Positions 3,270-53,222 of a stretch of DNA of 64,000 nucleotides are shown piece by piece. Both the position numbers and the translations under genes were made by a program. Numbering within the stretch: position 1 is the first letter of the stretch; each line of letters opens with the position of its first letter. The stretch is from an uncultured candidate division Zixibacteria bacterium (GTDB lineage Bacteria > Zixibacteria > MSB-5A5 > GN15 > FEB-12): contig CAWDXE010000007.1 of NCBI GenBank assembly GCA_963806185.1, positions 256,001 to 320,000 on the forward strand. Direction: 5' to 3'. Under the pieces are notes generated by a model, which saw only the letters and a program-made list of their open reading frames with translations, did no database searches and was not told where the DNA came from.

Positions 3270-4391
3270 CTAGTCTTCGATCATCTCCACATTTGCCCGG
3301 GGCACGATAGCTCGCTCACCTGTCTCCAGCTCAACTTCAAGCACACGCGCCGACGATTCCGATTGCAGTTTCTGCAGCGGTGAGGGGAGTTCGGTCACTT
3401 TGCCGAGCTGACCGAAATAAGGGTGCCGAATAATTCGAATCGGCGAACCAATCTTAAGTCCTTCGACCTGCCCGCCGTTGTCGGCGGCCAAAGCCTTTTC
3501 GGAGATCTTTGGAACGACGACTTCGGGTCGAATGACGCCGGCGCGAATCTGTGTGGCGCCATTAATACACGCCAGTTCGCCTTCATGCTTCTTCAACAAG
3601 TCGAATGTCTTGTGGGCCATGTTGATCTGGCCGAATCCTTCGGTGACCACCAGCGTGATGCCGATTTCCTCCGAGCCGGTGATGGCGACACCGATATCGT
3701 AGCCGAGGAAATCACGCAGGTCTTTATCGTCAAAGCCGCCGACGACAATCCCTTTGACGCCCAGTTCGATTGCCTTCTTGAGTGCGGGCGCTGTCACAAT
3801 CGAGCCTCCGACGACGATCTTTCCTTTCATCTCGGGGACGATGAGTTCCGGCGAGAGGATAGTCCTGGGATCAGCCGTCGCCACCTTGACGGGGCCGGAT
3901 ACCTCGCCGCCGATGCCGAAAATACCCTGCACGAACGACGCCTGGCAGGAAACGACCACACCCTCGTTGGGAATCACGCTGACCACCTCTCCGACGAGGT
4001 ACGCCTTCACCTCGACCGGAGTCGGTTCGGCTCGCTGCAGGACCTGGCCGGTAACATGCGAAATCGATTCAATTGTCCCATTAATCGTGGCGTTGCAGGA
4101 ATTCTTGAAGATGAACAACGTCGTCGACTGGGCAATGAGCTCGCCTTCCTTGATGGGATCGCCGGCCTTCTTCGTCATGTGCATGGCGATATCTTCCGGC
4201 GGAATGCCCAGTTTGTTGGCGACGTTTATGGGGACGACCGCGCCCGGAAGCAAAGTGCGCGCAACAACCGTGTCGGGCTGTACCTTGTCACCGACCTTGA
4301 CCAGCACGTCTCCCTTCAACGGGAGAATGCGGTTTTTCTTCACCAATATCTTCTCAGTTACTTTTAATCCAGGCGTATACGCGTGGCCCAT
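3270..4391 (-). CDS. Conserved hypothetical protein with barrel-sandwich hybrid motifs and a C-terminal KOW/SH3-like domain; GlmL-associated
   Basis: GDVLVKVGDKVQPDTVVA and KKAGDPIKEGELIA hybrid motifs; NGATQIRAGVIRPEV; C-terminal GLKIGSPIRIIRHPYFGQLGKV. Same strand as and close to the GlmL-like gene. Confidence 0.75.
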   Translation of the reverse strand: MGHAYTPGLKVTEKILVKKNRILPLKGDVLVKVGDKVQPDTVVARTLLPGAVVPINVANKLGIPPEDIAMHMTKKAGDPIKEGELIAQSTTLFIFKNSCNATINGTIESISHVTGQVLQRAEPTPVEVKAYLVGEVVSVIPNEGVVVSCQASFVQGIFGIGGEVSGPVKVATADPRTILSPELIVPEMKGKIVVGGSIVTAPALKKAIELGVKGIVVGGFDDKDLRDFLGYDIGVAITGSEEIGITLVVTEGFGQINMAHKTFDLLKKHEGELACINGATQIRAGVIRPEVVVPKISEKALAADNGGQVEGLKIGSPIRIIRHPYFGQLGKVTELPSPLQKLQSESSARVLEVELETGERAIVPRANVEMIED

Positions 4392-4420
4392 GGGGCTACC
4401 CTTTCTCTAACCGGGATGGG

Positions 4421-5167
4421 TTACTTGTTTGCTCTGCGGCGGCGAAGCCGGATAATCACGATGAGCAGAATCACAAACAGTCCGCTGTACGGAACCCAAT
4501 TCCATCTGGCTTTCTTCTTTTCCGGCTCGGCCTTGGTGACCTTTACTTCTTCCTTTGGCAGAGCGGATTGTATGTCGGTCGTGAACGATGCCACGATATC
4601 TTTGAATTCGGGAATGCTCTTGTCCATGAGGGAATCAGGCGCATAGAAAAAGAAATTCGCGATGCCCCGATCGTAGAACTTCATCACCATCAGGTTTCGC
4701 TTGACCGCCTGACCGCCTTCCGTCACCCGGCTGAGGACCGACATAGTATTGGTCGACGCGTCGAAGGTCGGCTGGTCGGACGCCAGGTTGGTGAGGAAGT
4801 TCCCTTGCGGCGCGTACTTGATGTCCTTGCCGAAGGTCTTCGACAATAATTCCTTAACCGAATCCACCTGCTTGGTGGACAGCGCGCCGACTGTATCCAC
4901 GGTGACTATGAGGTATTCGGCAGCATAGAAGGGGTTCGACGTCGCCGGGGCGAACACCGCCTCATACAGATACATTTCAGCGGTGGCCTGGTTTTGCTGC
5001 AAATAGTAATCGACTGTTCGAGTGTCGAGTCGGTCCCATCCCGCGGGATAGGTAATCGCGAACTTGCCGTTAAACGACACAAACGACTCGGCCGAAGCGC
5101 CCGCGGCGACCAACGTCACCAGAGCGACAATCAGGGACACGATGGCATAACGACTGGTACGTTTCAC
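4421..5167 (-). CDS. Hypothetical exported protein with C-terminal TM anchor and poly-Arg tail
   Basis: Sec signal ending ASA-E; C-terminus WNWVPYSGLFVILLIVIIRLRRRRANK. Gaps of 11 bp to glmL and 29 bp to the next gene. Confidence 0.7.
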   Translation of the reverse strand: MKRTSRYAIVSLIVALVTLVAAGASAESFVSFNGKFAITYPAGWDRLDTRTVDYYLQQNQATAEMYLYEAVFAPATSNPFYAAEYLIVTVDTVGALSTKQVDSVKELLSKTFGKDIKYAPQGNFLTNLASDQPTFDASTNTMSVLSRVTEGGQAVKRNLMVMKFYDRGIANFFFYAPDSLMDKSIPEFKDIVASFTTDIQSALPKEEVKVTKAEPEKKKARWNWVPYSGLFVILLIVIIRLRRRRANK

Positions 5168-5178
5168 AACTCGTCCTC

Positions 5179-7042
5179 TCAGCGCAGAATCACGCCGTCT
5201 TTGGCCGGATAAATGTCAAGTTCGACCATCCACTTGTTCAGGTAGGAGACGCGCTCCTGTTCGCTGAGCTGCGACAGGTCAAACGGGCGGCCCCGTCCGT
5301 CGAGAATGATCCCGACCACGCCGCCGTGAATCTCCTTCTCAACCTTTACGCCGTTGCCCAGACCGCAGTTGTAGCCACGCTCCGGCTCAAAGGTCGCTTT
5401 GCAGGTTTTCGGGAGGCCGTTGTCCTGCAGGCCCAGTTTGAACAGCTTCATTTCCAGATGATTGAGCGTGCCGCTCACGGTGCCGTCCGGCAGCTCGATC
5501 GTGTATTTCATGACCGGTCCCGGCTTCTTGCTCGTCCCCGCCGGCGCGATGCAGGTGCCCAGGTGGATGAGGCAGTCCTTTTCGAATACTTCCGTTGCCG
5601 CCTTCGGCTGTACCTCGGTCAGTACGCCGAGCTGCGGCATCATGAAGATCGAATCCACGGCGAGTCGGGTGACTCCTTCCGGCATGAAGGAGTCGATCAT
5701 CATGAGCGCCGATTGCTGGCGGCGCGGAGCGTGCGACAGCACGCCGCCTGAGCCGATGAGCATATCGAGGGTCATCATGTTCACAATCGTCGCGCCGGAA
5801 GCCGACTGCTCGAAAGCGTCGGCGATGGTACGCTGCTGCTGGACGCCCTTCAGCACCGAGGCAAAGCTCTTGTGCTGAATGAAGGCGAGGCGGAGCGCTT
5901 CCTTGGCGATCGCCTGTTCGAAAATCAGTTCTTCCATCGACTGCGGGATGGTGGTCGGGCGGATCATCTTGTTCTTGACTCGGTTGCGCAGGTCGCGTTC
6001 TTCCATGACAAACGGCACCCAACGCATCACCATCGGCAGGGTTGCTTCGGCGAAAACGTTTGAAATCGAGTACGACATCCCCAGGTTGGCCGACACCGTC
6101 CGGTTAAATACCGGCGTCTTGCCATCGGGGCGAAAGACCGAAAAAACGTCAGTCGTGGCGCCACCGATGTCGACGCCCACTGCTTCAATCTTATACTGTT
6201 CGGCGATGGTCTGAATGATCAATCCGACCGCGCCGGGAGTCGGCATAATCGGTGCGTCGGCCCAGTCCATCAACTTCTTGTAGCCAGGAGCCTGTGCCAT
6301 CACGTGTTCCATGAACAGTTCGTGGATTTCTTCGCGGGCCGGGCCGAGATTCTCGCGCTCCAGCACGGGGCGAAGGTTGTCGACCATGCGCAGATCAACT
6401 TTGGAAGAGAGCGTTTCCTTGACAGCGTCCCGGGCCTGGACATTTCCGGCGTAGATGATCGGTAGTTTATACCCCGTGCCGAGGCGGGGGCGGGGATCTG
6501 CCGCCGAAACCAGTTCGGCAATTTCGACCACGTGCGTGGTCGTGCCGCCGTCGATGCCGCCTGAAAGCAGTATCATGTCCGGGCGAAGATGGCGGATTCG
6601 CTCAATCTGCTGGTGGGGGAGACGTTTGTCGTTGGACGCGATCACGTCCATCACGATTGCTCCCGCGCCCAGGGCGGCGCGTTCGGCTGATTCGGCCGTC
6701 ATCGACCGGACCACACCGGCCACCATCATCTGCAGTCCTCCGCCGGCGGACGATGTCGAGATGAAAACGTCGGTGCCGGTTCGACCGCTGGCCGGACTGA
6801 TGAACTTGCCCTGCTCGTCGAGAATCTTGCGGCCGGATAAGTTCTTCGAGTTCAGCGACGGCGTTTAGTACGCCCATGGTTACATCTTCAAACGGCGCTT
6901 CGACCGTTGTCGGTGCCTCACCACGGGACACCAGCCGGTATTCGCCGTTTACGTATTCAATGAGGATTGCCTTGGTCGTCGTCGAGCCGCAGTCGGTGGC
7001 GACGATTACTTTGATATCGTTCTGGTTCGCAAACTTGGCCAT
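5179..7042 (-). CDS. glmL: Glutamate mutase L (GlmL/MutL, PF13941-type) ASKHA ATPase-like protein; one +1 frameshift near 6838
   Basis: Joined ORFs 6602..7042 and 5179..6729 give about 620 aa with ATDCGSTTTK, STSSAGGGLQMMVAG (restored across the shift), ILLSGGIDGG, GVDIGGATTDVFS, NRTVSANLGMSYS and IGSGGVLSHAP. Confidence 0.85.
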
Positions 7043-7460
7043 TCGAAATCCTGGCGTCGGTCGGACGCGTTATCTATTTGGGCCGCAACATGTTGGGCGG
7101 CAAGTCGTTCTGTCCTTTTCACTGTCAGGCGGCCAGTATAACATAGATGGCCCGACTTGTAAAGTGGCAAAATGGGAATGTGGAGTGAGGAGCCGGATGG
7201 GGAGAGCAGATGTCGCTCAGCGTTTGTCGCAGGAGGTTCATCGACGGTCACTTGGCACGGCCGCGTTAACACGGCAATCGGTTGCGGCCAGTTCGGTTTC
7301 CGGTGTCACGACGCCAGAGCTTCTTCAGTTCAAATCGTCCCCTGCCGATATCTTCTCTAACAGAGTTTACCGATCCATATTGGCATTGATTTTGCCCGGC
7401 GGATTACCTATACTTTTGCGTTAACTGCAGAACCGGGTACACTTTGAGGACACCTAAATA

Positions 7461-8360
7461 ATGAATACTATCTTCCATGACTCGTCGGTCGGCGATGATA
7501 TCCGTCGCCAACAGCTCTACCGGGGCCAGCTCTACGTATTTTCGCCGCGCCCATCGACCATCGCTCTTTGCGACTTCGCCAAACAGATGATAGTCGACGC
7601 CTTTAAGCCGCTCGATCCGCGTACCGCCCAGTTTGACATGCCGGTCGAGACATACGCCGCGCTGCTGGCCGACTTCAAGCCGAAATTCATTCATCACCCG
7701 GAATCAAAAAGACTGCTTCAAGCGGTGCTCCGCGAGTTCGGCTGCGACCTGCAGCAGACCTATTTCGACGTCCCCCGCATTCGGACCTCGACCTCGGATA
7801 ACTACCTGACTACCGGTATCGCTTACGCTTTCCATCCGCACCGTGACACTTGGTACTCGGCGCCGCAATTCCAATTGAACTGGTGGTTGCCGGTTTTTGA
7901 CATCGTGCCGGAAAACGGCCTGGCCTTTCATCCCAAATACTGGTACACGCCGCTCAAGAACAGCTCTCGCGTCTACAATTACGCCGAGTGGAACAAGACC
8001 AGCCGCCAGAACGCCGCCCAGCATATCAAAGTTGATACGCGCGTCCAGCCGAAGCCGGAAGAAACAGTAGAACTCGATCCGCAGATCCGACCCATTTGTC
8101 CGCCCGGTGGATTGATATTGTTTTCGGCAGCGCACCTGCACTCGAGCGTGCCGAATACGTCGGGCTATACTCGCGTGAGCATAGATTTCCGCACCGTGCA
8201 TCTGGGCGACGCCGCGAACGGGATCGGCGCGCCGAATATCGATTCGCTGTGCACCGGCACGACCATGGCCGACTATCTGCGGGCGACTGATCTCGCGCAC
8301 ATCCCGGAAGAGGTCATTCGAAAATACGATACGCCTCCGCCGGCGTCGGTGGCGTCATAA
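7461..8360 (+). CDS. Putative Fe(II)/2-oxoglutarate dioxygenase-fold protein (PhyH-like)
   Basis: HxD motif (FHPHRDTWY); distal H and R (FSAAHLHSSVPNTSGYTRVSIDFR); RBS GAGGA upstream. Confidence 0.65.
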   Translation: MNTIFHDSSVGDDIRRQQLYRGQLYVFSPRPSTIALCDFAKQMIVDAFKPLDPRTAQFDMPVETYAALLADFKPKFIHHPESKRLLQAVLREFGCDLQQTYFDVPRIRTSTSDNYLTTGIAYAFHPHRDTWYSAPQFQLNWWLPVFDIVPENGLAFHPKYWYTPLKNSSRVYNYAEWNKTSRQNAAQHIKVDTRVQPKPEETVELDPQIRPICPPGGLILFSAAHLHSSVPNTSGYTRVSIDFRTVHLGDAANGIGAPNIDSLCTGTTMADYLRATDLAHIPEEVIRKYDTPPPASVAS

Positions 8361-8569
8361 GCATTCTCATAGGTCGACGGTGGCTTCTTTGCCGAAATCG
8401 GCAGAGAAGCCGCCCATTCTTCGTCGCTCTGCCTACTGCTCTTCAGTTTTGATTCTGCTGATAATCGTTGACCCTGTTCCGCACAACCCGTTTATTGCCC
8501 CCAAGCATTTATTCACCCGGTACTGTTGTAGTTCGCGCGAGCCGAAGGATTTGGAAGAGGTATTACGAA

Positions 8570-9517: not shown

Positions 9518-9715
9518 CCGTCGCCAGTCGACGCTCTGACCAATTGTTCGTGTCTCGCGAGCGCGGAGCCCGCAGTGTGCATTGTTTGAACACAAACGGA
9601 TGGCGCTCCCATGGCGTGTTTCGCGAATTCGCTTTTCCGAATGGCCGAGCGTATCAAGCTTTAGAATCGTTACCCGATATATTTAAGAGTCGCTTACGGC
9701 GTAATAGAGAGGCGT

Positions 9716-10294: not shown

Positions 10295-10346
10295 CGGGGC
10301 GATGACCGACCGGCAACGAGGCCACGACGTAAGAAAGGCGCGGGTC

Positions 10347-12002: not shown

Positions 12003-12020
12003 GCCGACGGAACGACAGGG

Positions 12021-12064
12021 AAAAAGAACCGGGTTGGACGATTGTCCAACCCGGTTTTGCTTTT
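12021..12064. terminator. Bidirectional intrinsic terminator
   Basis: Perfect 13-bp stem AACCGGGTTGGAC/GTCCAACCCGGTT (12027-12056), flanked by A- and T-tracts, between convergent genes. Confidence 0.85.
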
Positions 12065-12087
12065 GCGGACCGATGAAAGGGCCTGAT

Positions 12088-14473: not shown

Positions 14474-15760
14474 TTGCTCGTGTCCCGAATCAAAACGGCG
14501 CCTCTCTCTTTTATTGTCTGGCTCGCCCTGACAGTCCTCGTCGCCTCCACTCCGGGAGCGGCGCAAGAGAAAGTCGCGGCGATTACCGACACGTTACCCT
14601 CTCCCTCTCCACTCACCCCGGACACTCTGGCCATCGCCAAAACGCCCCATCCACCCACGGATGTTCATGCTGAAGATCTGGACAATGACGCCGGCGGATC
14701 GCTCGAAATTGTCTGGACCTTGTCGTCTGACGACGTTTCTCCCTCCGGCAGAGTTCGACATTATCGAATCGAGCGGGCGAAATTGACCGGCGGCCAACCT
14801 GGCGGGTTTACTGAAGTCGGCGACGTATCGGCGGGGACCAAGGTATTTGACGACGGCCGGACCAGCGACGACGAGACATACATATATAGGGTCGTTGCGG
14901 TAAACGATTCCCTCTTTGATGACGAACCGGTCTGGCGATTTGTTGCGGCATCGGCCCCGAGCAATTCTGCGAAATCTTCGGCCCAGTGGTTCGACATGAG
15001 ACGGATCAATGTCTTCGTCGGCGTACTCCTGTTATGTGGCTTCATCATCTATTATATATCTCGGGCCAAGGCGGGTAAGGAGATCTTCATCCGCAAGATT
15101 GCCGGTCTTGAAGCGGTTGATGAAGCAGTCGGTCGAGCCACCGAAATGGGCAAGAAGATTTACTATATCCCCGGCTCTCAGGATATGGACAACGTACAGA
15201 CCCTGGCTGGAATCACCATCCTGGGCCGTGTCGCTGAACTGGCGGCGCAATACGATTCCAAATTGGAGGTGCCGGTTTCCCGCTCGCTCGTGATGGTGAC
15301 CTGCCGAGAAGTTTTGAAGGAGTCGTATGCGCGAGCCGGGCGAGTTGACGCGTTTCACGACGACCAAGTGAAATATCTGACCGACGATCAGTTTGGATAT
15401 GCGGCCGCGATTGACGGTATGGTGGTACGGGAACGACCGGCCACTATTTTTCTGATGGGCTCATTTTATGCCGAATCGCTGGTTCTGGCCGAGACCGGCA
15501 ACAGTGTCGGCGCGATTCAGATTGCCGGTACCGGGCAGCCGTCGCAGTTGCCCTTCTTCGTGGCGGCATGTGACTACACGCTGATCGGTGAAGAATTGTT
15601 CGCCGCCTCAGCTTATCTAAGCAAGGAGCCCCGGCAATTGGGCTCGCTGAAGGGGCAGGACATCGGCAAGGGGCTGATCCTGGTTTGTATCGTCATCGGC
15701 ATTATTCTGGAGACCTTCCACATCTGGAATATGCACAGGCTTTTTACGGTGATCGAATAG
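14474..15760 (+). CDS. Membrane module copy 1, subunit A: FN3-like periplasmic domain + TM + conserved domain (DUF6754-like)
   Basis: Signal peptide; FN3-like features (EIVWTLS, YRIER, YIYRVVAVN); TM; IRKIAGLEAVDEAVGRATEMG, YAESLVLAETG, PFFVAACDYTLIGEELFAASAYL. DUF assignment is from memory. Confidence 0.8.
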   Translation: MLVSRIKTAPLSFIVWLALTVLVASTPGAAQEKVAAITDTLPSPSPLTPDTLAIAKTPHPPTDVHAEDLDNDAGGSLEIVWTLSSDDVSPSGRVRHYRIERAKLTGGQPGGFTEVGDVSAGTKVFDDGRTSDDETYIYRVVAVNDSLFDDEPVWRFVAASAPSNSAKSSAQWFDMRRINVFVGVLLLCGFIIYYISRAKAGKEIFIRKIAGLEAVDEAVGRATEMGKKIYYIPGSQDMDNVQTLAGITILGRVAELAAQYDSKLEVPVSRSLVMVTCREVLKESYARAGRVDAFHDDQVKYLTDDQFGYAAAIDGMVVRERPATIFLMGSFYAESLVLAETGNSVGAIQIAGTGQPSQLPFFVAACDYTLIGEELFAASAYLSKEPRQLGSLKGQDIGKGLILVCIVIGIILETFHIWNMHRLFTVIE

Positions 15761-15761
15761 T

Positions 15762-16409
15762 ATGCGGCGCGAAGTACCATTGCTGATCACCGGAATTGTC
15801 GGAATCATATTCGTCATTCAATATTTCATCCCCCATTTTCCATTCGGCCGCATGGCCAATTGGTTTGCCGACTGGTTCAGTATTGTTGCAGCCTGTGCGG
15901 TGTGGCTGGGTGTCCTGAATCTTCTGAAAATGTCGCTTGAAAAGATCGTCGCTCGTAAGGCGGATTGGGGCTACGCCATTATCATTGTCGTCTGTTTCTT
16001 CCTGATAACGATTATTGGGTTTGCCGAGGGGCGGGATTCGCGCAACGTGGGCACCGGCTTCGACTGGCTGTATACCTACGTGTATTCGCCGCTCTCGTCA
16101 ACGATGTTTGCCATTCTGGCGTTTTTCGTCGCCTCGGCATCCTATCGGGCTTTTCGCGCCAGGAATCTTGAAGCGACCTTGCTTTTGCTTTCCGCCTTTT
16201 TTGTGATGCTCGGCCGCGTACCGGTAGGTGATCTGCTCACCGGATGGCTGCCGGATTCCATGCAGCTCTCCGGCCTGGCCACGTGGATTATGAACTTTCC
16301 GAATACGGCCGGCCAGCGCGCCATTATGATCGGCATCGCTCTGGGTACCGTGTCGTCGTCATTGCGCATTATCCTCGGGATCGAGCGTTCATATCTGGGA
16401 GGGGAGTAG
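15762..16409 (+). CDS. Membrane module copy 1, subunit B (polytopic membrane protein)
   Basis: About 6 hydrophobic segments; FAILAFFVASASYRAFRARN; AGQRAIMIGIALG..LRIILGIERSYLG. 1-bp gap after subunit A. Confidence 0.85.
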   Translation: MRREVPLLITGIVGIIFVIQYFIPHFPFGRMANWFADWFSIVAACAVWLGVLNLLKMSLEKIVARKADWGYAIIIVVCFFLITIIGFAEGRDSRNVGTGFDWLYTYVYSPLSSTMFAILAFFVASASYRAFRARNLEATLLLLSAFFVMLGRVPVGDLLTGWLPDSMQLSGLATWIMNFPNTAGQRAIMIGIALGTVSSSLRIILGIERSYLGGE

Positions 16410-16412
16410 GGC

Positions 16413-17432
16413 ATGACCGAACACGCCAAAGCCAATCCCAAAATGGAGATCATCGCAACAGCGGCGGCGTTCGTTGCGCTAATCCTCATCTATGTGGGGC
16501 GGCAGAATGACTGGTTCCCGGCGATCGTGATGGGAACGCTGGTGTCGACGGTGGTCGTGTGCCTGATCTTTGCCGGGCTCCTCTGGATTCTGGTGCGTAC
16601 GATTCGGGGTAAACAGGCCGAGCGCCGCATTGTCTTTCTCTTTATTGCGCTGGCAGTGTCGCTGCCGTTGTTCATGAGCCTCAAGCAGACCATCAAGATT
16701 TCGCCGGAAGCCGCCACCTTTTATGCCGGGTTGGAGAGTCTCCCGGCGGGTTCCAAAGTGCTCGCCACTTTTGACTACGATCCGCCGTCGGCGCCGGAAC
16801 TCCAGCCGATGGCAGAATCGTTCTTCCGCTATGCGTTTCACAAGAATCTAAAGGTGATCATCATGGGGCTCTGGCCGCAAGGACCTCAGCAGGCGAACCT
16901 GGCGCTTAACAAGATTCTCGCTGAGGATGATATCAAGGCGATGGGGCTGCGGTATGGCGTTGATTATGTCAATCTCGGTTTTCAATCGGGCAACGAGTTT
17001 GTTATTCAGCGCATGGGTTCGGATATTCGATCAATGTTCCCCACCGACATGAATGGAACGCCGTATGACAGTCTGCAACTTGTGCACAACGTGAAGAACT
17101 TCTCCAACATTGATTATTCCTTCAATTTGTCAGCGGGGTATCCCGGTACCAAGGAGTGGGTGTTAGTGGCGGTAGACCGGTACGGCCTCAAGATCGGCGC
17201 CGGCAACACGGCCGTGCAGGTGACGGAAATGTACCCGTACGTTCGCACGGGCCAGCTTATCGGCATTCTGGGCGGCATGAACGGCGCAGCGGAATTTGAA
17301 AAGCTTACCAAGGTACTCGGCAAAGGAACCCGGTTCATGTTGTCGCAGTCATTCGCGCACCTGATGGTCATTGCCTTCATCCTTATCGGGAATGTCGCCT
17401 ATTTCAGGCTCGAGCGGAAAGGACGGAAGTAA
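16413..17432 (+). CDS. Membrane module copy 1, subunit C (TM - alpha/beta domain - TM)
   Basis: ERRIVFLFIAL TM; FDYDPPSAPELQPMA; DYVNLGF; GILGGMNGAAEFE; FAHLMVIAFILIGN. Confidence 0.85.
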   Translation: MTEHAKANPKMEIIATAAAFVALILIYVGRQNDWFPAIVMGTLVSTVVVCLIFAGLLWILVRTIRGKQAERRIVFLFIALAVSLPLFMSLKQTIKISPEAATFYAGLESLPAGSKVLATFDYDPPSAPELQPMAESFFRYAFHKNLKVIIMGLWPQGPQQANLALNKILAEDDIKAMGLRYGVDYVNLGFQSGNEFVIQRMGSDIRSMFPTDMNGTPYDSLQLVHNVKNFSNIDYSFNLSAGYPGTKEWVLVAVDRYGLKIGAGNTAVQVTEMYPYVRTGQLIGILGGMNGAAEFEKLTKVLGKGTRFMLSQSFAHLMVIAFILIGNVAYFRLERKGRK

Positions 17433-17438
17433 GGCGCC

Positions 17439-18107
17439 ATGGAAAGCGGATTCATGTACCACTTCGCGCTCTGGGTAGCGGCCTTTCTCACGCTCGGCAT
17501 TATCTCATTTCTGTACCGTGACAACGTTTGGTACAAGATCTGCGAAGCGGTATTTGTCGGCATTTCGGCCGGGTACTGGTTTGTCACCTACTTCTGGGAC
17601 AACATCTACGGCAAATTCTGGATCGGCGTCTTTCCGCCTGGCGGCGGCGCCCGCACTGACGACTGGTATATGCTGCTCTTTGGAGGTGTACTGGGGATTC
17701 TCATGTTGCTGCGGCTGGTGCCGAAAATTGGTTGGATTTCGCGATGGCCGCTGGCCTTCATCGTCGGCGCCACGGCCGGTCTGTACCTGATTACGTACTT
17801 CGCGTCCAACGTGATGGTGCAGCTCCAGGATACGGTGCGACCTCTTTTCGGCGCCGCGGGCGAGACAGTCTCAATGTACGACGCCATCGGCAACATTGTC
17901 GTTGCCGTTGGCACCTTCAGCGGTCTGATCTATTTCTTCTTTTCCAAAGAACATAAGGGCGCCTTTGGAGCTACCGCCAAGGTGGGCATTTTCTTCCTCA
18001 TGATTACTTTCGGGGCATCATTCGGCTATACGGTTATGAGCCGTATGTCATTGCTCATCGGGCGCATTGATTTTCTCTTCACCGATTGGTTAGGATTGAT
18101 ACGCTAG
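17439..18107 (+). CDS. Membrane module copy 1, subunit D (polytopic membrane protein)
   Basis: AFLTLGIISFLYRDN..YK..E..FVGISAGY; YFFFSKEHKGAFG; LMITFGASFGYTVMSR. Confidence 0.85.
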   Translation: MESGFMYHFALWVAAFLTLGIISFLYRDNVWYKICEAVFVGISAGYWFVTYFWDNIYGKFWIGVFPPGGGARTDDWYMLLFGGVLGILMLLRLVPKIGWISRWPLAFIVGATAGLYLITYFASNVMVQLQDTVRPLFGAAGETVSMYDAIGNIVVAVGTFSGLIYFFFSKEHKGAFGATAKVGIFFLMITFGASFGYTVMSRMSLLIGRIDFLFTDWLGLIR

Positions 18108-19357
18108 TGCCACGACACGTCTCCATACATCGCAGGGCATACTCCCGTTTTGCGCTCTCGCTATTGGGTGTCTGCTTCTTTGCGGTCAATTCCCTCCTGG
18201 CCCAGGCCGACGCCGGCCTCACCGGAGATTCGTCTATTGTCGCCGTCCCGGTTGCACCGGCCACGTCGTTGATTGCGGAGGACCACAAGTACGACAACGG
18301 CGATGCCATCAGTTTGACCTGGGTGCCGTCGATCGACGACCAACTGCCGGCAGGTAAGCTCACCGGATATGCGCTGTTTCGCATCACCAATTCCTCCGCA
18401 CCCGAAAAGATCGCCGACCTGTTCCCCGGCGCCAACAATTATCTCGACGAGGGTCTCAGCGGCGACAGCAGCTACTCCTACTATCTTGTAGCGCTCGCCG
18501 GCAATGCGCGCTCGGAATCGATTCACACGGCGCAACTGACCCCCCACGTGGAATGGCTGAACCTCTCCCGGCTCAATTTGCTGCTCATCGCGGTCGTCTT
18601 CGGCGGTGCCGTAATCTACTTTATCGAGACCGCTCGCCGAGGGAAGAAGTATTTCATTCGCAAGATCGCCGGGCTGGATGCGGTCGACGAGGCAATCGGC
18701 CGGGCCACCGAGATGGGCCGGCCCATCCTCTTCATTCCAGGCATTCAGGATATGGACGACGTGCAGACCATTGCCGCCATTACGATTCTGGGGCGGATCT
18801 CTCGCACCATCGCCGATTATGATTCAAAAATTCTCATGCCCGTGTCACGTTCGCTCGTGATGACGGCCGCTCGTGAGACCATCAAGACGTCGTTTGCGGC
18901 GGCGGGTCGCCCGGATGCGTACAACGATGATTTTGTGCACTACGTCACTGATGAACAATTCGGCTACGTGGCGGCAGTTGACGGTATTATGGTGCGCGAG
19001 AAACCGGCCGCGACTTTCTTTCTCGGCGCGTTTTTCGCCGAATCGCTGATCCTGGCCGAAACCGGGAATTCGATCGGCGCCATCCAGATTGCCGGCACGG
19101 CCATGCCCACGCAGATCCCGTTTTTTGTCGCGGCCTGCGACTTTGCGCTGATTGGGGAGGAGCTGTTTGCAGCTTCGGCGTATCTGTCGGGTGAGCCGAA
19201 GCAACTCGGGTCGCTGAAGGGGCAAGATGTCGGCAAGGGAATCGCGCTGGCGACGATTCTAGTCGGCACGGCCGCCGTCACCATTGCCCTGGCCTGGCAT
19301 AATGAGTTCTTTGGTTCCGTGCTCCGGGTGCTTAACTCTGTCTTCAGGACGAACTGA
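18107..19357 (+). CDS. Membrane module copy 2, subunit A (FN3-like + DUF6754-like)
   Basis: Paralogue of 14474..15760 (IRKIAGLDAVDEAIGRATEMG; FFAESLILAETG). GTG start overlapping the upstream stop is inferred. Confidence 0.8.
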   Translation: MPRHVSIHRRAYSRFALSLLGVCFFAVNSLLAQADAGLTGDSSIVAVPVAPATSLIAEDHKYDNGDAISLTWVPSIDDQLPAGKLTGYALFRITNSSAPEKIADLFPGANNYLDEGLSGDSSYSYYLVALAGNARSESIHTAQLTPHVEWLNLSRLNLLLIAVVFGGAVIYFIETARRGKKYFIRKIAGLDAVDEAIGRATEMGRPILFIPGIQDMDDVQTIAAITILGRISRTIADYDSKILMPVSRSLVMTAARETIKTSFAAAGRPDAYNDDFVHYVTDEQFGYVAAVDGIMVREKPAATFFLGAFFAESLILAETGNSIGAIQIAGTAMPTQIPFFVAACDFALIGEELFAASAYLSGEPKQLGSLKGQDVGKGIALATILVGTAAVTIALAWHNEFFGSVLRVLNSVFRTN

Positions 19358-19362
19358 CGGTT

Positions 19363-20034
19363 ATGAAACGCGAAGTCCCACTGCTCATCACCCTGTTTGT
19401 CGCCTCGCTCCTGATCATTTCCGTATTCATCCCTCCACTTGAGAGTGCCGGAGAGAATTTTACTCTGTTCTTCGACATCATCGCCGTCTTTGCATTCTTC
19501 CTTGGCGGGGGGAACCTGCTGCGTGTCCATCTGGACAAAGTGATAAGTCGACGCGACCAATGGGGATATTCCGTAGTGACGCTCGCCGGTTTCCTGGTCA
19601 TGCTGATCGCGGGCATCTCCAAGATCGGCTTGGCGACTATCGCCACGCCGGTGACCAATGACGGCGGCTGGTTCCAGACGATCTTTGCCAACGTGATGTC
19701 GCCGCTCAATTCGTCGATGTATGCGTTGCTGGCGTTTTTTGTCGCGTCGGCTTCGTACCGGGCGTTTCGCGCCAAAAATCGCGAGGCAACTCTGCTGCTG
19801 ATTGCTGCGTTCATTGTTCTTCTGGGTCGCACACCGTTTGGCACGGTGCTTACATCTTGGGTGCCGGACAATTTCAGTCTGCTGCAAATTCCCAATTTGG
19901 CGATTTGGATCATGAACTCACCCAATCTGGCCGGCCAGCGGGCAATTATGATCGGCATCAGTCTCGGCGTGGTGTCAATGTCGTTGCGCCTCATCCTCGG
20001 GATTGAACGAAGCTACCTGGGGGATGACAAATGA
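19363..20034 (+). CDS. Membrane module copy 2, subunit B
   Basis: MKREVPLLIT; ALLAFFVASASYRAFRAKN; LRLILGIERSYLG. Confidence 0.85.
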   Translation: MKREVPLLITLFVASLLIISVFIPPLESAGENFTLFFDIIAVFAFFLGGGNLLRVHLDKVISRRDQWGYSVVTLAGFLVMLIAGISKIGLATIATPVTNDGGWFQTIFANVMSPLNSSMYALLAFFVASASYRAFRAKNREATLLLIAAFIVLLGRTPFGTVLTSWVPDNFSLLQIPNLAIWIMNSPNLAGQRAIMIGISLGVVSMSLRLILGIERSYLGDDK

Positions 20035-20951
20035 CGGCGTCCCATATCGGCCTGATCATATCTCTCTGTATCATCGGCGGCGGCCTGGTCTGGATGCTCG
20101 TGCGTACGATCAGGGGCAAGGTTGTCGAGCGCCGCATCGTTTTTCTCTTCATCGCCGTCTCTGTACTGGCGCCGATTCTCTTCCAGTTCACTTTCACCGA
20201 GACGGCCTCGCCGATTGTCAAAGGTGTCTTCGAACGGATAGAGGATCTTCCCCCGCGCTCAACCGTGCTGATCTCGTTTGATTTTGACCCGGCGATGGCG
20301 CCGGAAGTCCATCCGATGGCCAACGCACTTGTCCGGCACTGCCTGGTGAAGAAGCACAAAGTGGTCTTCATGGCCCTCTGGGCCACCGGTCAATCGCTGC
20401 TCAATCAGACACTGACCAATGTCGTAAGAGCCGAATTCCCCGAGGTCACCGAAGGGATCGATTACATCAATCTCGGCTACAAGGCGGGCAATGAGGGCGT
20501 ACTCAACGTCATCGTCACCGACCTGCGGAAGATGTTCCCCAACGATGTCAACAACCGCCCGCTCGACAGTATTCCCTGGATGAAAGACATCAAGTCTTGT
20601 CGCGACTTCAATTTGATCCTGACCATCGGCGGTGGTAAACCGGGAGCCAAAGAATGGGTGCTGTTTGTCGGCGATCCGGGCAATGTGCCGATCGCGGCCG
20701 GCCTCGCCGCGGTGTCTACGCCGCAGTTGTATCCCTATTATCCGAAACAACTTGTTGGCCTGTTGGGCGGAATCAAAGGGGCGGCTGAGTACGAATCGGA
20801 ACTTCGTAAGCGATATCCTCAGTTCCTGGCCGTCCCCGCACCTGGCCTTCTTATGATGGGACCACAGACGCTGGCTCACATGGTCATCATCATCTTCATC
20901 ATTTTCGGCAATATTGCCTACTTCCGTGGGCGGAAGCGAGGGGAGAAGTGA
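20031..20951 (+). CDS. Membrane module copy 2, subunit C
   Basis: ERRIVFLFIAV; FDFDPAMAPEVHPMA; DYINLGY; GLLGGIKGAAEYE; LAHMVIIIFIIFGN. Confidence 0.85.
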   Translation: MTASHIGLIISLCIIGGGLVWMLVRTIRGKVVERRIVFLFIAVSVLAPILFQFTFTETASPIVKGVFERIEDLPPRSTVLISFDFDPAMAPEVHPMANALVRHCLVKKHKVVFMALWATGQSLLNQTLTNVVRAEFPEVTEGIDYINLGYKAGNEGVLNVIVTDLRKMFPNDVNNRPLDSIPWMKDIKSCRDFNLILTIGGGKPGAKEWVLFVGDPGNVPIAAGLAAVSTPQLYPYYPKQLVGLLGGIKGAAEYESELRKRYPQFLAVPAPGLLMMGPQTLAHMVIIIFIIFGNIAYFRGRKRGEK

Positions 20952-21766
20952 TGAAGCGCTCAACCGTGATCCTCTCCATCATCATAGCCATTCTGTTCAT
21001 CATCAGTTGGGCCCTCAAGGCTCGGACTGCAGCGCCGGACGACAACGGAATGCTCAATGGATTTCTGGTGACTTTCGCCGCCTTTCTGACGTTGGCGATC
21101 TTCTCGTTCCTGTACCAGGACAATCCGTTTTACAAATTTGCGGAGCATCTTTATGTCGGCGTTTCCGCCGCCTATTGGATGACACTTGGATTCTGGTCGA
21201 CTATTGTTGGAAACCTGATTCCGCGGTTGTCGGAGAGAATATCGGGTTGGTTCCTGGTACCGTACAATCCGGGGGAATACAATTTCATTTACTGGATACC
21301 GGTCATACTCGGTCTGCTGTTGCTGATGCGGCTTTCGCCCAAAGGGGGGTGGTTATCGCGCTGGGCGCTGGCCTTCATCGTCGGCACGACGGCTGGATTG
21401 AATTTTGTGCGCTATCTCCGCTCCGATTTTGTGGAACAGGTTTCAGCCAGTTTTCTCCCGCTGCTCGGGACAAACTGGCAGGGGTTTGGCGCATTCATCG
21501 CCAACATAGATTTGAATGCCTCAGGTCAGTTCGTGGCTATTTTGTCCAACTGGGTAATATTTACTGGCGTTGTGTGCGGAATTATCTATTTCTTCTTCTC
21601 CAAAGAGCACACCGGCGCTTTCGGCAAGGCCTCGCGCTACGGAATCTGGATTCTTATGATCACCTTTGGCGCCGCATTCGGCTACACGGTGATGGGCCGT
21701 ATCTCGCTCTTGGTTGGACGACTGACATTTCTTTTCAGGGACTGGTTGGGAATGACGATTAGTTAA
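20951..21766 (+). CDS. Membrane module copy 2, subunit D
   Basis: AFLTLAIFSFLYQDNPFYKFAEHLYVGVSAAY; YFFFSKEHTGAFG; LMITFGAAFGYTVMGR. Confidence 0.85.
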   Translation: MKRSTVILSIIIAILFIISWALKARTAAPDDNGMLNGFLVTFAAFLTLAIFSFLYQDNPFYKFAEHLYVGVSAAYWMTLGFWSTIVGNLIPRLSERISGWFLVPYNPGEYNFIYWIPVILGLLLLMRLSPKGGWLSRWALAFIVGTTAGLNFVRYLRSDFVEQVSASFLPLLGTNWQGFGAFIANIDLNASGQFVAILSNWVIFTGVVCGIIYFFFSKEHTGAFGKASRYGIWILMITFGAAFGYTVMGRISLLVGRLTFLFRDWLGMTIS

Positions 21767-21792
21767 CGCTTCTCTTGTGACAGAGAGGGAGT

Positions 21793-23317
21793 ATGCAATA
21801 CATTCTACGATTCTGTCTGGCCATGGCAATGCTATCTGCCGTTGCTTCGGCCCAGACCGATCCCCCGCAGGCTGCGCCCGGAGATTCGGCCGCGACTGCG
21901 GTGGTGACCGCCACACTTGCCGTTCCGCCGGCACCGCCCACCGAGGTAGCCGGTCGGGACACGAAGAATGATCACGGTCATTCGGTTACGGTGACCTGGC
22001 AAAAATCGGCTGACGATAGCGCCGGGGCCAATACCGTGATCGGGTACCAGGTTTTTCGCTGGATTCCATTTTACATCGATACACTGGACTTGCTTCGCCG
22101 CCGGATCGACTCGGTCGCTCAAAAGCGCGCCGAGTACGAGGTCTACATCGATCGCTCGGGCAACCGGATCAGCTCCGCGACGCCCGAAGCGCAGAAAGTA
22201 ATCCAGGATTCCGTCAGCGGGATGGAAGTCGCGCAGCCGAAACTCGCGGCTCTCGAGAGCCAGTTGCGCGATGAGTTTGAGACTGGCGTGCAGACGCTCC
22301 CCGAGAAGCACAAGTCGTATCCGAACCATGGCGAATTCAGGGCGGTTGGCGCCACCCCCGCCGGGACTACTTTGCTGATCAATTCCGGGTCCAAAGAGAA
22401 GGAATCAGGATCATACATCCCCGACTATTCTGATTTCTACTACAGAGTTGATGCGCTGACGGTCGACACAACGGTGCGATCGTCCTCCGAGGTCTGCGGA
22501 CCGGTGCAATGTAAGGGGCAGTGGTTCAACACCGGGCGTATACCCGTCCTGACCGCGGTCCTGATTTTCGCGGCACTAACCATGTGGTTTGTCTACCGTG
22601 CCAAACGAGGCGCCGACCTCTACGTTCGGCCGCTCGCCGGCATTGAGGCGGTCGACGACGCTATCGGTCGTGCCACCGAAATGGGCAAACCGATTCTTTA
22701 CGTACTTGGTCTGGGCACAGCGGCCGACATTGCCACTATCGCCTCATTCACGATTCTCGGCCGCGTCGCCAAGCGGGTGGCGGAATATCAGACCGACCCT
22801 GATTGTGCCGTGCTACGATCCGATCGTGATGTCGGTCGCACAGGAGGTGGTCAAGTCGTCCTATCTCGACGCCGGCCGCCCTGACGCCTATAAGGAAGAT
22901 CACGTCTATTTCGTCACGCAGTCGCAGTTCGCATACGTCGCTGCAGTCAACGGTATCATGCTTCGCGAGCTGCCGGCGACCAACGTCTACATGGGCAAGT
23001 TCTACGCGGAATCGCTGCTGCTGGCGGAAACCGGGGCGCTGGCCGGGTCGATTCAGATCTCCGGCACCGATGAGGTGTCTCAGATTCCATTCTTCGTCGT
23101 CGCGTGTGACTACACGCTGATCGGCGAGGAACTCTACGCCGCGTCGGCCTATCTTGCGCGCGAACCCCTGCTTCTGGGATCGCTCAAAGCGCAGGATTAT
23201 GCCAAGGCGGCCGTTATCATTCTGGCCATTGTCGGTATGCTGGCGGTCAATATCGGCGCCGCGGCGAATTCTCAATGGCTGATGGCTTTCAAAAACATTT
23301 TCCAGGTCGTGGACTAG
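21793..23317 (+). CDS. Membrane module copy 3, subunit A (FN3-like with helical insertion + DUF6754-like); +1 frameshift near 22795
   Basis: ORFs 21793..22884 and 22589..23317 join into one paralogue (AGIEAVDDAIGRATEMG / FYAESLLLAETG / ACDYTLIGEELYAASAYL). Confidence 0.8.
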
Positions 23318-23327
23318 GAGGGCGCAG

Positions 23328-23978
23328 ATGAAACGACAACTTCCATTTGTCCTGGTGTTCATCTCCGGCGTCTTCATGATTTTCCAGTACTTCGTGCCTC
23401 ATGAAAAGTCGGAATGGCTCTACGAATACTTGCTCGACTGGATCACGATCATCGGGATATTTGCCCTGGCGCTCGGGATCTGGTCGCTGATTCTGGTGAG
23501 CGTAGACAAAATCAAGAACCGGCGGCTGCACTGGCAGTACAGCATCGTAACGCTGGCCGGCCTGTTCCTGATGATTCTCTTCGGCTTTACCGCTCAAATC
23601 GACGGTCACTGGGGATTTTACTTCTATACGCAGGAAGGGCTCACCAATCCGCCGTTCCGCCGTTTCTTTGAGTTTGTGCTGACGCCGATTCAGGCGACTA
23701 TGTTCGCGCTGCTGGCGTTCTACATCGCATCAGCGGCCTACCGCGCTTTCCGCGCGCGCAATGTGCTGGCGACGTTGCTTCTGTGTGCCGCCATCATTCT
23801 GATGCTCCGCTTCTCACCGGGCTTCGGTGACTACCTGTCCAAGACGGCCAGTTGGCTCCTCAATGTGCCGACGCTGGCGGCCAACCGTGCGATCATCATC
23901 GGCATCGGACTCGGCATGGTGGCCACCGCGCTCAAGGTCATTCTCGGCATCGAACGCGGCTACATGGGGAAAGGGTGA
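23328..23978 (+). CDS. Membrane module copy 3, subunit B
   Basis: MKRQLP; FALLAFYIASAAYRAFRARN; LKVILGIERGYMG. Confidence 0.85.
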   Translation: MKRQLPFVLVFISGVFMIFQYFVPHEKSEWLYEYLLDWITIIGIFALALGIWSLILVSVDKIKNRRLHWQYSIVTLAGLFLMILFGFTAQIDGHWGFYFYTQEGLTNPPFRRFFEFVLTPIQATMFALLAFYIASAAYRAFRARNVLATLLLCAAIILMLRFSPGFGDYLSKTASWLLNVPTLAANRAIIIGIGLGMVATALKVILGIERGYMGKG

Positions 23979-23981
23979 TCT

Positions 23982-24867
23982 ATGGCACAACAAGAAAATA
24001 TCTTTGATCACCTGATGTCGCTGGATCGCCGGTGGGTATTTCTCCTGCTCGTGATCGTCTGCGTTATCGGCTATGTCGCCGACTACGAAGTGCCGATTCT
24101 GGTCCAGCGTGAAGTGAAGTCGATCTACACGTTCATTGACACGCTAAAACCGAGACCAGACGATCTTCGTCGCGATCGACTACGATCCGAACTCTCAGGC
24201 CGAGCTCCATCCGATGACTTACGCCATCATGGAGCAGGCCTTCCGCAAGAACCTGAAGGTCATCTTCACGGCTCTGTCGCAGAACGGCCCCGGTATGGCC
24301 GATCAGGCGATTCGAGATATCGCCGATTCGGTTAAGCTCGATCGCACCTACAACGGTGTTGCGTACAAGGGGCGCGAAATCGTCAACGGTGTCGATTACG
24401 CGTTTCTCGGCTACAAACCGTACTACGCGCTGCACATTCTCGGCATGGGGCAGAATTTCCGCCTACCGTTCCCGAACGACTACTACGGCACGCCGCTGGA
24501 TTCGCTGCCGGTGATGAACGGTATCCTGAATTACAGTCAGGTGGCGTGTGTGATCGATCTTTCGTCGGGAAATATTACCGACGCCTGGATTTCTTACGGT
24601 CAGGGACGCTTCGACTTCCCGCTGGCGCTCGCGGTGACCGGCGTGCAAGCCACGCAGTACTATCCGTTTCTCAACTCCGGCCAGGTGTTCGGCATCATGG
24701 GTGGAATGCTGGGAGCGGCGCAGTATGAGAAACTGGCCGATAACCCGGGGCTGGCCATAGACGCCATGCGTGTGCACCTGCCCGCGCACTAGATGATCAT
24801 TGCATTCATCATCCTGGGCAATGTCGGCTTTCTCATGAGCCGTCGCGCAAGAAAGTTAGGGAGGTAA
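23982..24867 (+). CDS. Membrane module copy 3, subunit C; +1 frameshift near 24152 and in-frame TAG at 24790-24792
   Basis: LDRRWVFL; restored IDYDPNSQAELHPM; DYAFLGY; GIMGGMLGAAQYE. After the TAG the frame continues MIIAFIILGNVGF, matching the C-terminal TM of the paralogues, to TAA at 24867. Confidence 0.75.
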
Positions 24868-24872
24868 GGCAT

Positions 24873-25673
24873 ATGGAATTCTCAACCTATCTCTGGACGA
24901 CGCTCGCCGCTTTCCTGACTTTGTGCACGTTTTCGTTTCTGTACAAGGACAATCCGTTCTACCGGTTCGCCGAACATCTCGTGGTCGGCGTCTCGGCGGG
25001 CTACTTCGTGATTATTCTCTGGCACAATTCGCTCGTGCCGAACCTGTTTCAGCGATTGGCTGATGGCACGCCATGGCTCCTGTGGATTGACTCGTCGCAC
25101 CCCTGGTACCTGATACCGGCCCTGCTCGGCTTCATGATGTTCTCTCGTTTTTCGAGAGATTACACCTGGGTTTCGCGATGGCCGATGGCGCTGTATATCG
25201 GTATTTCCGCCGGCCTGGCCGTGCCGCTTGAAATGTCAAACCGCGTCAACAAGCAGTTGTATGCGGCGATGTCGAACTTCAATTGGTCGTACTTCGGTGG
25301 GTCGGGGTTCCTCGACACCATGTCAGGCTATTCGCAATTGATCATCTTCGTCGGTGCGATCGCGGCGCTCATATACTTTTTCTTTTCCAAGGCCCATACC
25401 GGCGCCTTTGGCGGAATCGCGAAATTCGGCTTGTGGATCCTGATGATCGGCTTCGGCGCGTCGTTCGGCTTCACGGTTATGGCGCGTATCTCGCTGTTTA
25501 TCAATCGTATTCAGTTCCTCGATAAATCATGGATTCAGACCGCCTTCAATGCGGAGAATGCGCATTACAACGGCGGGTTCAAGATTGTCTTTGCCCTCGT
25601 CGTCCTTATTGTTTTGGCGTACATTGTGTTGGAGTTGTTGAAGCACCTGCGGCGGCAAAGTGCGCAATCGTAG
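24873..25673 (+). CDS. Membrane module copy 3, subunit D
   Basis: AFLTLCTFSFLYKDNPFYRFAEHLVVGVSAGY; YFFFSKAHTGAFG; LMIGFGASFGFTVMAR; extra C-terminal TM. Confidence 0.85.
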   Translation: MEFSTYLWTTLAAFLTLCTFSFLYKDNPFYRFAEHLVVGVSAGYFVIILWHNSLVPNLFQRLADGTPWLLWIDSSHPWYLIPALLGFMMFSRFSRDYTWVSRWPMALYIGISAGLAVPLEMSNRVNKQLYAAMSNFNWSYFGGSGFLDTMSGYSQLIIFVGAIAALIYFFFSKAHTGAFGGIAKFGLWILMIGFGASFGFTVMARISLFINRIQFLDKSWIQTAFNAENAHYNGGFKIVFALVVLIVLAYIVLELLKHLRRQSAQS

Positions 25674-47586: not shown

Positions 47587-47588
47587 GA

Positions 47589-53199: not shown

Positions 53200-53222
53200 C
53201 TGTTCGAGCGTATAAACCGGTG

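Follow-up and report, generated by a model that had tools for sequence, protein, structure and literature searches.

On the minus strand of the window, by which we mean the entire 64,000-nucleotide stretch of Zixibacteria DNA analyzed here, a gene for a GlmL-like protein is followed by genes encoding an exported 248-aa protein and a 373-aa protein, referred to as H, and three membrane modules of four genes each (A to D) lie on the plus strand (Table 1). Both pieces of the GlmL-like gene match the MutL/GlmL family PF13941, in agreement with the initial annotation, but they do not make up the single open reading frame assumed there, as a frameshift near position 6841 divides the gene in the assembly. 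The 5' piece is 87% identical over 68 aa to the orthologue at locus L019, and the 3' piece is 84-86% identical to the orthologues at L016 and L019. The additional base at 6841 is missing from a near-identical contig of the independent run X2 (one contig, depth 2), none of the GlmL-like matches in 60 other genomes sampled contains an internal stop (one of them is spread over two contigs and one ends at a contig end), and the PPDK, AcrB, A3 and C3 genes in the window are likewise split. Together, these observations indicate that the frameshift is most likely an assembly error. The phosphate-1, phosphate-2 and adenosine motifs of the ASKHA fold had been described as intact, which the sequence confirms, and all three are kept in relatives of both kinds, 46 linked to H and 17 linked to mutases. 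A candidate promoter is located about 90 bases upstream of the GlmL-like start.

Table 1. Position and content of the features at the locus.
Feature	Position	Strand	Description
H, 373 aa	3270..4391	-	barrel-sandwich hybrid motifs, swivelling beta/beta/alpha domain, KOW domain
Exported 248-aa protein	4421..5167	-	ORF; C-terminal membrane anchor; between GlmL-like gene and H
Rest of GlmL-like gene	5179..6846	-	PF13941 positions 72-450; called as ORF 5179-6729
Adenosine motif GSGG	5754-5743	-	second GlmL-like piece
Phosphate-2 motif DIGGATTD	6171-6148	-	second GlmL-like piece
Extra base causing frameshift	6841..6841	.	absent from near-identical contig of run X2
GlmL-like gene, 5' part	6841..7042	-	approximately residues 1-68; called as ORF 6602-7042; PF13941 positions 1-54
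Phosphate-1 motif DCGSTTTK	6994-6971	-	5' GlmL-like piece
Sigma-70-like promoter match	7135..7163	-	consensus scan only; 10/12, TG extension
Module 1	14474..18107	+	A1 14474-15760 (FN3 + DUF6754), B1 15762-16409, C1 16413-17432, D1 17439-18107
Module 2	18086..21766	+	A2 18086-19357, B2 19363-20034, C2 20031-20951, D2 20948-21766
Module 3	21793..25673	+	A3 21793-23317 (split), B3 23328-23978, C3 23982-~24860 (split), D3 24873-25673

The AlphaFold2 model of H is confident (pLDDT 93) and, together with its fold matches, supports the hybrid-motif and KOW content previously assigned to this protein, to which a swivel domain is to be added. Residues 151-300 match phosphohistidine swivel domains (PTS enzyme I and rifampin phosphotransferase; Z 9.8, rmsd 3.1, 109 aligned residues, and Z 8.7), and residues 48-124 match the N-terminal hybrid domains of RnfC/NqrA (Z 7.9 and 7.6). 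Structure searches found no match for the whole chain, and DdrA was absent from the 50 matches listed for the H fold. While sharing the folds of these domains, H has no conserved His, Lys or Cys: among 116 sequences, no column of the swivel domain exceeds 25% His and no column of H exceeds 50% Lys, and no conserved Cys was found. Roles as a phosphohistidine carrier or as a biotin/lipoyl carrier were rejected, since neither the phospho-accepting His nor the attachment Lys is conserved. Amongst the polar residues, T280 and R283 are invariant and Q281, R288 and E251 nearly so.

A predicted GlmL-H unit in one operon with membrane modules

Gaps of 11 and 29 bases flank the 248-aa gene, from which we infer that co-transcription of the GlmL-like gene with H, as suggested in the initial annotation, is plausible; the two are, however, not directly adjacent, as the 248-aa gene intervenes. 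This gene is found at L016 and L019 and is missing where the gap between GlmL and H measures 15-160 bases, and its product has a weak match to PsbP (E=0.027, below the cut-off). We regard it as a lineage-specific passenger outside the core system. The GlmL-like gene and H lie less than 3 kb apart on the same strand in 56 of the 61 genomes tallied from the host's phylum, and 49 proteins are GlmL-H fusions. Five fusion loci extend far enough to include A, and at each of them the end of the fused gene shares 4 bases with the beginning of A. The GlmL-like protein and H are predicted to act as one unit.

In many phyla, the GlmL-like, H and A-D genes are arranged as a single operon, with all six in order on one strand at 31 loci in 30 genomes, and two further small conserved genes, E and F, belong to the system. 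The expectation that the pair commonly sits beside A-D in other anaerobes thus holds for the shared operon but not for the restriction to anaerobes, as B has named relatives in cultured planctomycetes, which are aerobic. The arrangement of one ATPase pair with several modules is likewise borne out in this genome, where gene counts give one GlmL-H pair and five A-D modules, and A matches number 2-6 per genome across the 61 genomes of the phylum. It is not general: in most Planctomycetota a single ATPase accompanies a single A, and there are Bacillota with several genes of each.

In subunit A, two membrane helices are predicted to flank a cytoplasmic domain of Rossmann type, and C is predicted to have a soluble domain on the outer side, both topologies being derived from positive-inside counts; B and D are predicted to have about six helices each. 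The predicted topologies of A and C are opposite, as are those of B and D. Profile comparisons of A with C and of B with D did not outscore reversed or block-shuffled controls, and the pairs were rejected as inverted duplicates. The lone exception amongst these comparisons was a marginal global A-C score (probability 2.7%). The cytoplasmic domain of A shares a Rossmann-type fold with Sir2 (Z 12.0, rmsd 3.3, 142 aligned residues), transhydrogenase domain III (Z 9.9) and RCK/TrkA-N domains (Z 9.8), at about 10% identity and with many other Rossmann folds scoring close behind; a B12-binding domain was not among the 50 matches listed in either search. The outer FN3 domain of A is variable in diderms and missing in Bacillota. 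B accepts large insertions, and its 120 long relatives are all B with insertions only, none being a fusion to another subunit. Few charged residues are conserved within the predicted helices. Profile searches of solved structures gave no match for B, C, D or the long GlmL, atlas searches returned unnamed or hybrid-motif clusters and nothing else, and in family and profile searches none of the subunits showed sequence similarity to a known transporter. No subunit has a characterized relative.

H-linked GlmL follows H and subunit A rather than B12 mutases

Like GlmL/MutL of glutamate (methylaspartate) mutase and Or-4 of ornithine aminomutase, the long GlmL has an ASKHA core with its ATP-binding motifs. 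It differs from them in length (about 610 aa against 447-488), in some 120 additional C-terminal residues forming a domain not found in mutase-linked GlmL, and in its partner H and A-D neighbors in place of mutases; its mean identity across many phyla is 63%. A mutase is encoded nearby at none of 109 H loci, as opposed to all 20 short-GlmL loci. In an unrooted FastTree phylogeny, 78 H-linked rows are set apart from 20 mutase-linked rows by a long branch with SH-like support of 100, so that the proposed separation of the two groups was recovered. This tree comprised 98 of 118 rows, 20 Zixibacteria-like rows having been dropped, the duplicate locus L081 omitted and fusions trimmed to 620 residues. 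Against the NCBIfam models NF040745, NF040744 and TIGR01319 (cut-offs 475, 600 and 204), the intact orthologues at L016 (239, 226 and 174 bits) and L013 (235, 226 and 177 bits) all score below the cut-offs.

None of the 40 window proteins scanned matches a B12-enzyme family, which bears out the earlier statement that the window contains neither glutamate mutase nor another B12 enzyme. Elsewhere in the genome, which is 82% complete, there are two methylmalonyl-CoA-mutase-family genes and MeaB; it yielded no match to PF02286 (searched without a positive control) or PF06751, and hence no gene for a dehydratase or ethanolamine lyase.

Within the host's phylum, PF13941 is present in 61, H in 60 and A (PF20539) in 61 of 61 genomes, and the same genomes yield GlmE in 5 and PF09043 in none (positive control 5/5). 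Amongst 50 H-bearing genomes, which account for 50 of 80 H loci, all 50 have A and 48 have PF13941. Counts in two other phyla agree, although they overstate significance because related genomes are not independent: in 301 sampled Bacillota, H and A each occur in 29 genomes and together in 28 where about 3 would be expected by chance (28 of 30 positive genomes), and in 201 sampled Planctomycetota, PF13941 occurs in 102, A in 103 and both in 101 where about 52 would be expected (101 of 104 positive genomes). The planctomycetal cases include single chromosomes on which the genes are more than 250 kb apart. Of the PF13941-positive Bacillota, 92 of 122 have neither H nor A. Exceptions are G470, with GlmL and no A; G427 and G549, with A and no GlmL; and G079 and G105, with H and A and no GlmL match. 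Decay was seen in one genome per case: where the long GlmL and H are missing (G198), A retains 25 of 58 near-invariant residues (at least 52 in members), and where A is missing (G118), GlmL has lost about 110 aa in frame. The decayed A at L121 lacks its N-terminal helix, which is a candidate docking site for the ATPase. By synteny and co-occurrence, the comparison that had been proposed as a check, H-linked GlmL keeps company with H and A-D rather than B12 mutases, and a functional link of GlmL-H to A-D is very probable.

Discussion

The GlmL-like protein and H would form one cytoplasmic ATPase unit of the A-B-C-D modules. That this unit docks on A-D and, by consuming ATP, powers them as a transporter is a proposal to which we give about an even chance. 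Closure of the actin-fold cleft on ATP would move H, which would push on the cytoplasmic domain of A and thereby cycle a pathway through B and D that is loaded from the outer domain of C; the small conserved proteins E and F are possible tethers of the ATPase. The direction would most likely be import of small organic solutes. Peptidase-like neighbors provide a weak hint to the cargo, as only 4 of 66 systematically picked adjacent genes are peptidase- or amidohydrolase-like, and the peptidase-rich Bacillota neighbors come from 11 hand-picked genes. Given its single-copy occurrence and strong conservation in many phyla, a housekeeping envelope machine would fit as well as a nutrient importer.

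In group II ECF transporters, one ATPase unit serves several dispersed membrane modules, and the one ATPase pair and five modules counted here resemble this one-to-many arrangement. The analogy drawn in the initial annotation extends no further, and the arrangement itself is not general, nor is sharing of the pair universal. In contrast to the ABC ATPase of ECF systems, the predicted ATPase is of the actin fold, with a match to PF13941 and to none of the ABC families. The modules comprise four subunits each, and no sequence match to the ECF subunit families (EcfT, S-component) was obtained for B, C or D. The motors of known ATP-driven transporters are of the ABC, P-type, rotary or other P-loop kinds, and we know of no transporter with an actin/Hsp70-fold ATPase as its power source. 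With a little less than even confidence, we suggest that F-E-GlmL-H-A-B-C-D represents an as yet undescribed class of primary active transporter with a wide distribution, in which, in Zixibacteria, one actin/Hsp70-fold ATPase and swivel-partner pair would serve about five interchangeable four-subunit modules.

ATP-coupled transport is, in our evenly balanced judgment, the best reading, with a remodelling chaperone as its main rival. GlmL-H could act on A-D in the manner of a reactivase, with ATP not powering each transport cycle but serving to assemble the complex or to detach a subunit, or a firmly held nucleotide or cofactor, from the Rossmann-type domain of A, which we regard as possible though rather unlikely. 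Diol dehydratase reactivase has an ASKHA and swivel-domain layout, and the ASKHA and swivelling beta/beta/alpha domains present here, as two subunits or a fusion, may correspond to those of DdrA/GdrA; H differs in adding hybrid motifs and a KOW domain, and the linked genes encode membrane proteins. The best matches of the A domain are nucleotide-binding Rossmann folds, and one pair per five modules would suit a chaperone. The nearest relatives of the protein adjoin B12 mutases and are described as reactivating chaperones (PMC4682846). The support cited there for GlmL as a reactivase is, however, a diol dehydratase paper, so that for GlmL itself a chaperone role seems to have been assigned by analogy, and the tight translational coupling to A and strict co-loss fit a structural subunit at least equally well.

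Alternatively, GlmL-H might be an ATP-dependent enzyme (hydantoinase/oxoprolinase-like activation, a ligase or a kinase) acting on a substrate that A-D bring in or let out, for instance in envelope polymer synthesis. High conservation, weak Hydantoinase_A matches (PF01968/PF05378, 18-22 bits, below the cut-off) and the five conserved polar residues of H, which could line a substrate site, are in line with this idea, but we consider it unlikely, as a hydantoinase-B-type partner occurs in 0 of 77 neighbors scanned, H lacks a conserved His for phosphotransfer or Lys for biotin or lipoyl attachment, and no pathway gene recurs beside the operon. It is quite improbable that A-D serve as an envelope sensor or scaffold with GlmL-H as a cytoplasmic ATP-switch output instead of a pump: the variable FN3 domain, the insertions in B and the scarcity of conserved charges in the helices would suit a sensor, yet no regulator or effector gene recurs beside the operon, and two six-helix subunits would seem to exceed the usual needs of signalling. 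The reading as an ordinary GlmL, reactivating some B12 enzyme whose gene lies elsewhere and only incidentally close to A-D, could draw on the PF13941 match, the methylmalonyl-CoA-mutase-family genes and a genome merely 82% complete, but is already contradicted and very improbable in view of the missed GlmL, Or-4 and TIGR01319 cut-offs, the separate clade, the H loci without mutase, the scarcity of GlmE and absence of PF09043, and the MeaB gene that the genome has for its mutases.

Literature listings, mostly from outside subscription journals, showed no description of the system and, in the same scope, none of DUF6754. By implication of the results above, many proteins labelled 'glutamate mutase L' are misannotated and are no sign of B12 metabolism; even if the chaperone reading were true, the system would be an undescribed membrane machine. 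All 61 genomes sampled from the host's phylum have the system, as do about half of the Planctomycetota and about a tenth of the Bacillota sampled, and since cultured planctomycetes have at least subunit B, it is probably directly testable.

A GlmL-like ATPase and its partner H act as one genomic unit

Across the phylum, all 61 sampled genomes carry PF13941, the family of the GlmL-like ATPase, and 60/61 carry its 373-aa partner H, which a tally of the coordinate tables places within 3 kb behind the GlmL-like gene and on the same strand in 56/61; of the five remaining genomes, three have the two farther apart or on separate contigs, and in two a contig end interrupts the locus. A search for longer relatives of H yielded 49 proteins, each of which possesses PF13941 as well, and GlmL-H fusions occupy two or more branches of the tree. 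The pairing proposed in the initial annotation thus holds as one unit across the phylum, although in the window a 248-aa gene, a local passenger, intervenes. The nearest named relatives are from Zixibacteria. The ASKHA motifs named in the initial annotation are likewise present and conserved in H-linked and mutase-linked relatives, but the GlmL-like gene is not unbroken as assembled: its frame is interrupted at ~6841, and its two pieces align in succession to a single intact orthologue of 619 aa, with 84-87% identity. Since a 151-base contig from an independent run (depth 2; one other base differs) lacks base ~6841, other genes of the window are also split (PPDK, AcrB, A3, C3), and the match contains an internal stop in 0/60 other sampled genomes, we read the break as an assembly error.

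Features of the ATPase and membrane system in the window and elsewhere in the same genome (G000)
Feature	Position	Strand	Remark
GlmL-like gene	7042-5179	minus	called as two ORFs, each matching PF13941
248-aa gene	5167-4421	minus	between GlmL-like and H
H, 373-aa gene	4391-3270	minus	
Insertion between divergent operons	7043-14470		weak 2OG-Fe(II) oxygenase-like gene, aldo/keto reductase
Three A-B-C-D modules	14474-25673		A = DUF6754 preceded by FN3 domain
F and E, together	G000:C1:177098-178029		outside window; unlinked from remaining system genes
Fourth and fifth A-B-C-D modules	G000:C5:100860-104031; G000:C7:829378-832376		shorter A

Several variants of the unit were seen. A divergent class of GlmL-H fusions of 924-1038 aa (L020:4301-7075 and P0161-P0168) stops short of the KOW domain in L020 and in both members whose full sequence was read. 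Genome G017 has this class as a second copy, and no A-D genes adjoin it in L020. Stand-alone H-GlmL paralogue operons of G279 (L114, L115, L116) hold an unnamed gene of ~270-290 aa between H and GlmL. Directly 3' of H in the window lies a TolQ/ExbB, ExbD-like and TonB-like set (949-2789), found in the same place in L016 and L019.

The pair tracks with the A-B-C-D membrane genes

Each of the 61 phylum genomes has the membrane subunit A, in 2-6 matches, and in at least 34 of them A and GlmL or H are no more than 10 kb apart. In close relatives GlmL and A1 stand head to head with 440-680 bases between them; nine such loci contain nothing that matches the 7.4 kb separating them in the window. This insertion also encodes a chemoreceptor-like protein, its small partner and an exported, fibre-like protein of 615 aa. 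In 31 loci, drawn from 30 genomes, all six genes (GlmL, H, A-D) share a strand and keep this order; the record titles include Zixibacteria, Eisenbacteria, Fermentibacteraceae, Planctomycetota, Synergistia and Bacillota. Among marine fusion loci, 5/5 that extend far enough show a four-base overlap between the fused gene and A. Two further conserved genes, E (small; 30/80 loci) and F (two helices and a small domain; 25/80), usually lie upstream of GlmL, whereas in G000 they are on a different contig.

Among 50 genomes selected for H, A is present in 50/50 and PF13941 in 48/50. In samples not selected for H, the centre genome excepted, 29 of 301 Bacillota have H, 29 have A and 28 have the two together, with PF13941 in 122, mostly as short forms; of 201 Planctomycetota, 102 have PF13941, 103 have A and 101 have the two together, including cases in which hundreds of kb of a single chromosome separate the genes. 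As kin are not independent, these counts overstate statistical strength; the pattern is nevertheless seen again in three phyla. The expected tracking of the pair with A-D is therefore borne out, and we regard their genomic link as firm.

Losses agree in direction, in one genome each. The single-contig genome G198, which lacks H and whose three GlmL genes are short and mutase-linked, keeps 25/58 near-invariant residues in A (which lacks its first ~60 residues), 7/17 in B, 11/16 in C and 17/27 in D, where the members' minima are 52, 13, 13 and 21. Reciprocally, G118 has no A match, and its H-linked GlmL bears an in-frame deletion of ~110 aa and keeps 109/165. The decayed A-B-C-D module at L121:6511-9269, whose genome has neither long GlmL nor H and in which many invariant residues are gone, may serve as a natural negative control or may have taken on a new role.

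H-linked GlmL is separate from the B12 mutases

MutL/GlmL is described as a chaperone reactivating glutamate mutase, on the strength of a diol dehydratase citation (PMC4682846), and a second paper lists 'glutamate mutase' among actin-superfamily enzymes (PMC5597319). The distribution of the H-linked clade does not follow that of B12 mutases: 5/61 phylum genomes have glutamate mutase E, each time on a contig other than that of GlmL, 0/61 have PF09043, and a survey of 109 H-containing loci, short or overlapping ones among them, revealed no mutase. G000 (82% complete) yielded no glutamate mutase E, lysine/ornithine aminomutase or ethanolamine lyase (the PF09043 search had a control); it carries two methylmalonyl-CoA-mutase-family genes and MeaB. 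Conversely, a mutase is present in 20/20 short-GlmL loci hand-picked from the PF13941-positive Bacillota (11 glmS-glmL-glmE, six ornithine-aminomutase-type, three with a B12-binding protein beside PrpF). In a FastTree tree of 98/118 rows, unrooted and with several long branches, the 78 H-linked and the 20 mutase-linked rows lie on opposite sides of a branch with support of 100, a separation that 0/500 label shuffles equalled. Intact orthologues fall below all three NCBIfam cut-offs, and we place the system in none of the tested families, GlmL and ECF included.

The third short-GlmL context (L136:1762-7390, L139, L142), on its own branch, comprises a 620-aa B12-binding protein, PrpF and a PEP-mutase/isocitrate-lyase-family gene, reminiscent of the methyleneglutarate mutase pathway. 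The one glutamate mutase inspected (L021:1072-8546) is a 645-aa fusion of B12-binding and E chains, a length type found in the 5/61 genomes, with no GlmL seen at this locus. Its neighbours are of polysaccharide type (Asp/Glu racemase, polysaccharide flippase, asparagine-synthase-like gene), and it possibly supplies methylaspartate for a surface polymer.

Predicted architecture and mode of action

The GlmL-like protein, H and A-D make up a real and widespread ATPase and membrane system, apparently undescribed so far, as no description was found in the literature searched. The H-linked GlmL has ~120 additional C-terminal residues with a conserved motif. H (predicted structure, pLDDT 93, pTM 0.83) combines hybrid motifs like those of RnfC/NqrA N-termini, a swivelling domain resembling that of enzyme I (Z 9.8) and a KOW domain; fold searches found no whole-chain match. 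It has no conserved His or Lys and hence would not carry phosphate or biotin/lipoate in the known way, so that this role was rejected. A from L107 (pLDDT 91) is predicted as helix, Rossmann-type domain, helix. It scores best against Sir2 (Z 12.0), followed by phosphoglycerate kinase (10.6), transhydrogenase domain III (9.9) and RCK domains (9.8); with so many matches close together, the result speaks for a fold and not for a function. Positive-inside counts predict a cytoplasmic A domain, an outside C domain and six helices in B; D has four clear helices in the scan, and we infer about six. Some B subunits (P0320-P0439), many from Planctomycetota including cultured genera, carry 180-400-aa insertions between helices, some with TPR or FHA domains.

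The pair may well energise A-D directly, driving it as a transporter, perhaps in the way of the shared-ATPase ECF transporters. We favour this reading given the predicted outer soluble domain, two polytopic subunits and inner docking domain, the few conserved charges within helices, the tight coupling of ATPase and A genes, and the parallel increase in the numbers of modules and ATPases in some Bacillota. A serious rival, on account of the family's origin, is a reactivase-like chaperone acting on A, which we hold to be considerably less probable. For direct energising, one ATPase pair had been envisaged as facing three membrane modules; G000 indeed has a single GlmL-like gene and a single H, but five modules, two of them distant. 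The fifth, judged from ORFs alone, stands back to back with a sugar-type ABC transporter operon.

Neighbouring genes give weak evidence on the cargo. In a scan of adjacent genes (66/98, plus 11 hand-picked), peptidases appear mainly among hand-picked Bacillota neighbours, and glycine-cleavage P and lipoate-ligase genes twice each, the former adjoining the operon or the ATPase pair in L054 and L096, the latter in L054 and L074. Farther along the window (46618-54566), multiheme cytochrome c genes are followed by a ferredoxin/thioredoxin-reductase-like gene, several overlapping as if frameshifted.
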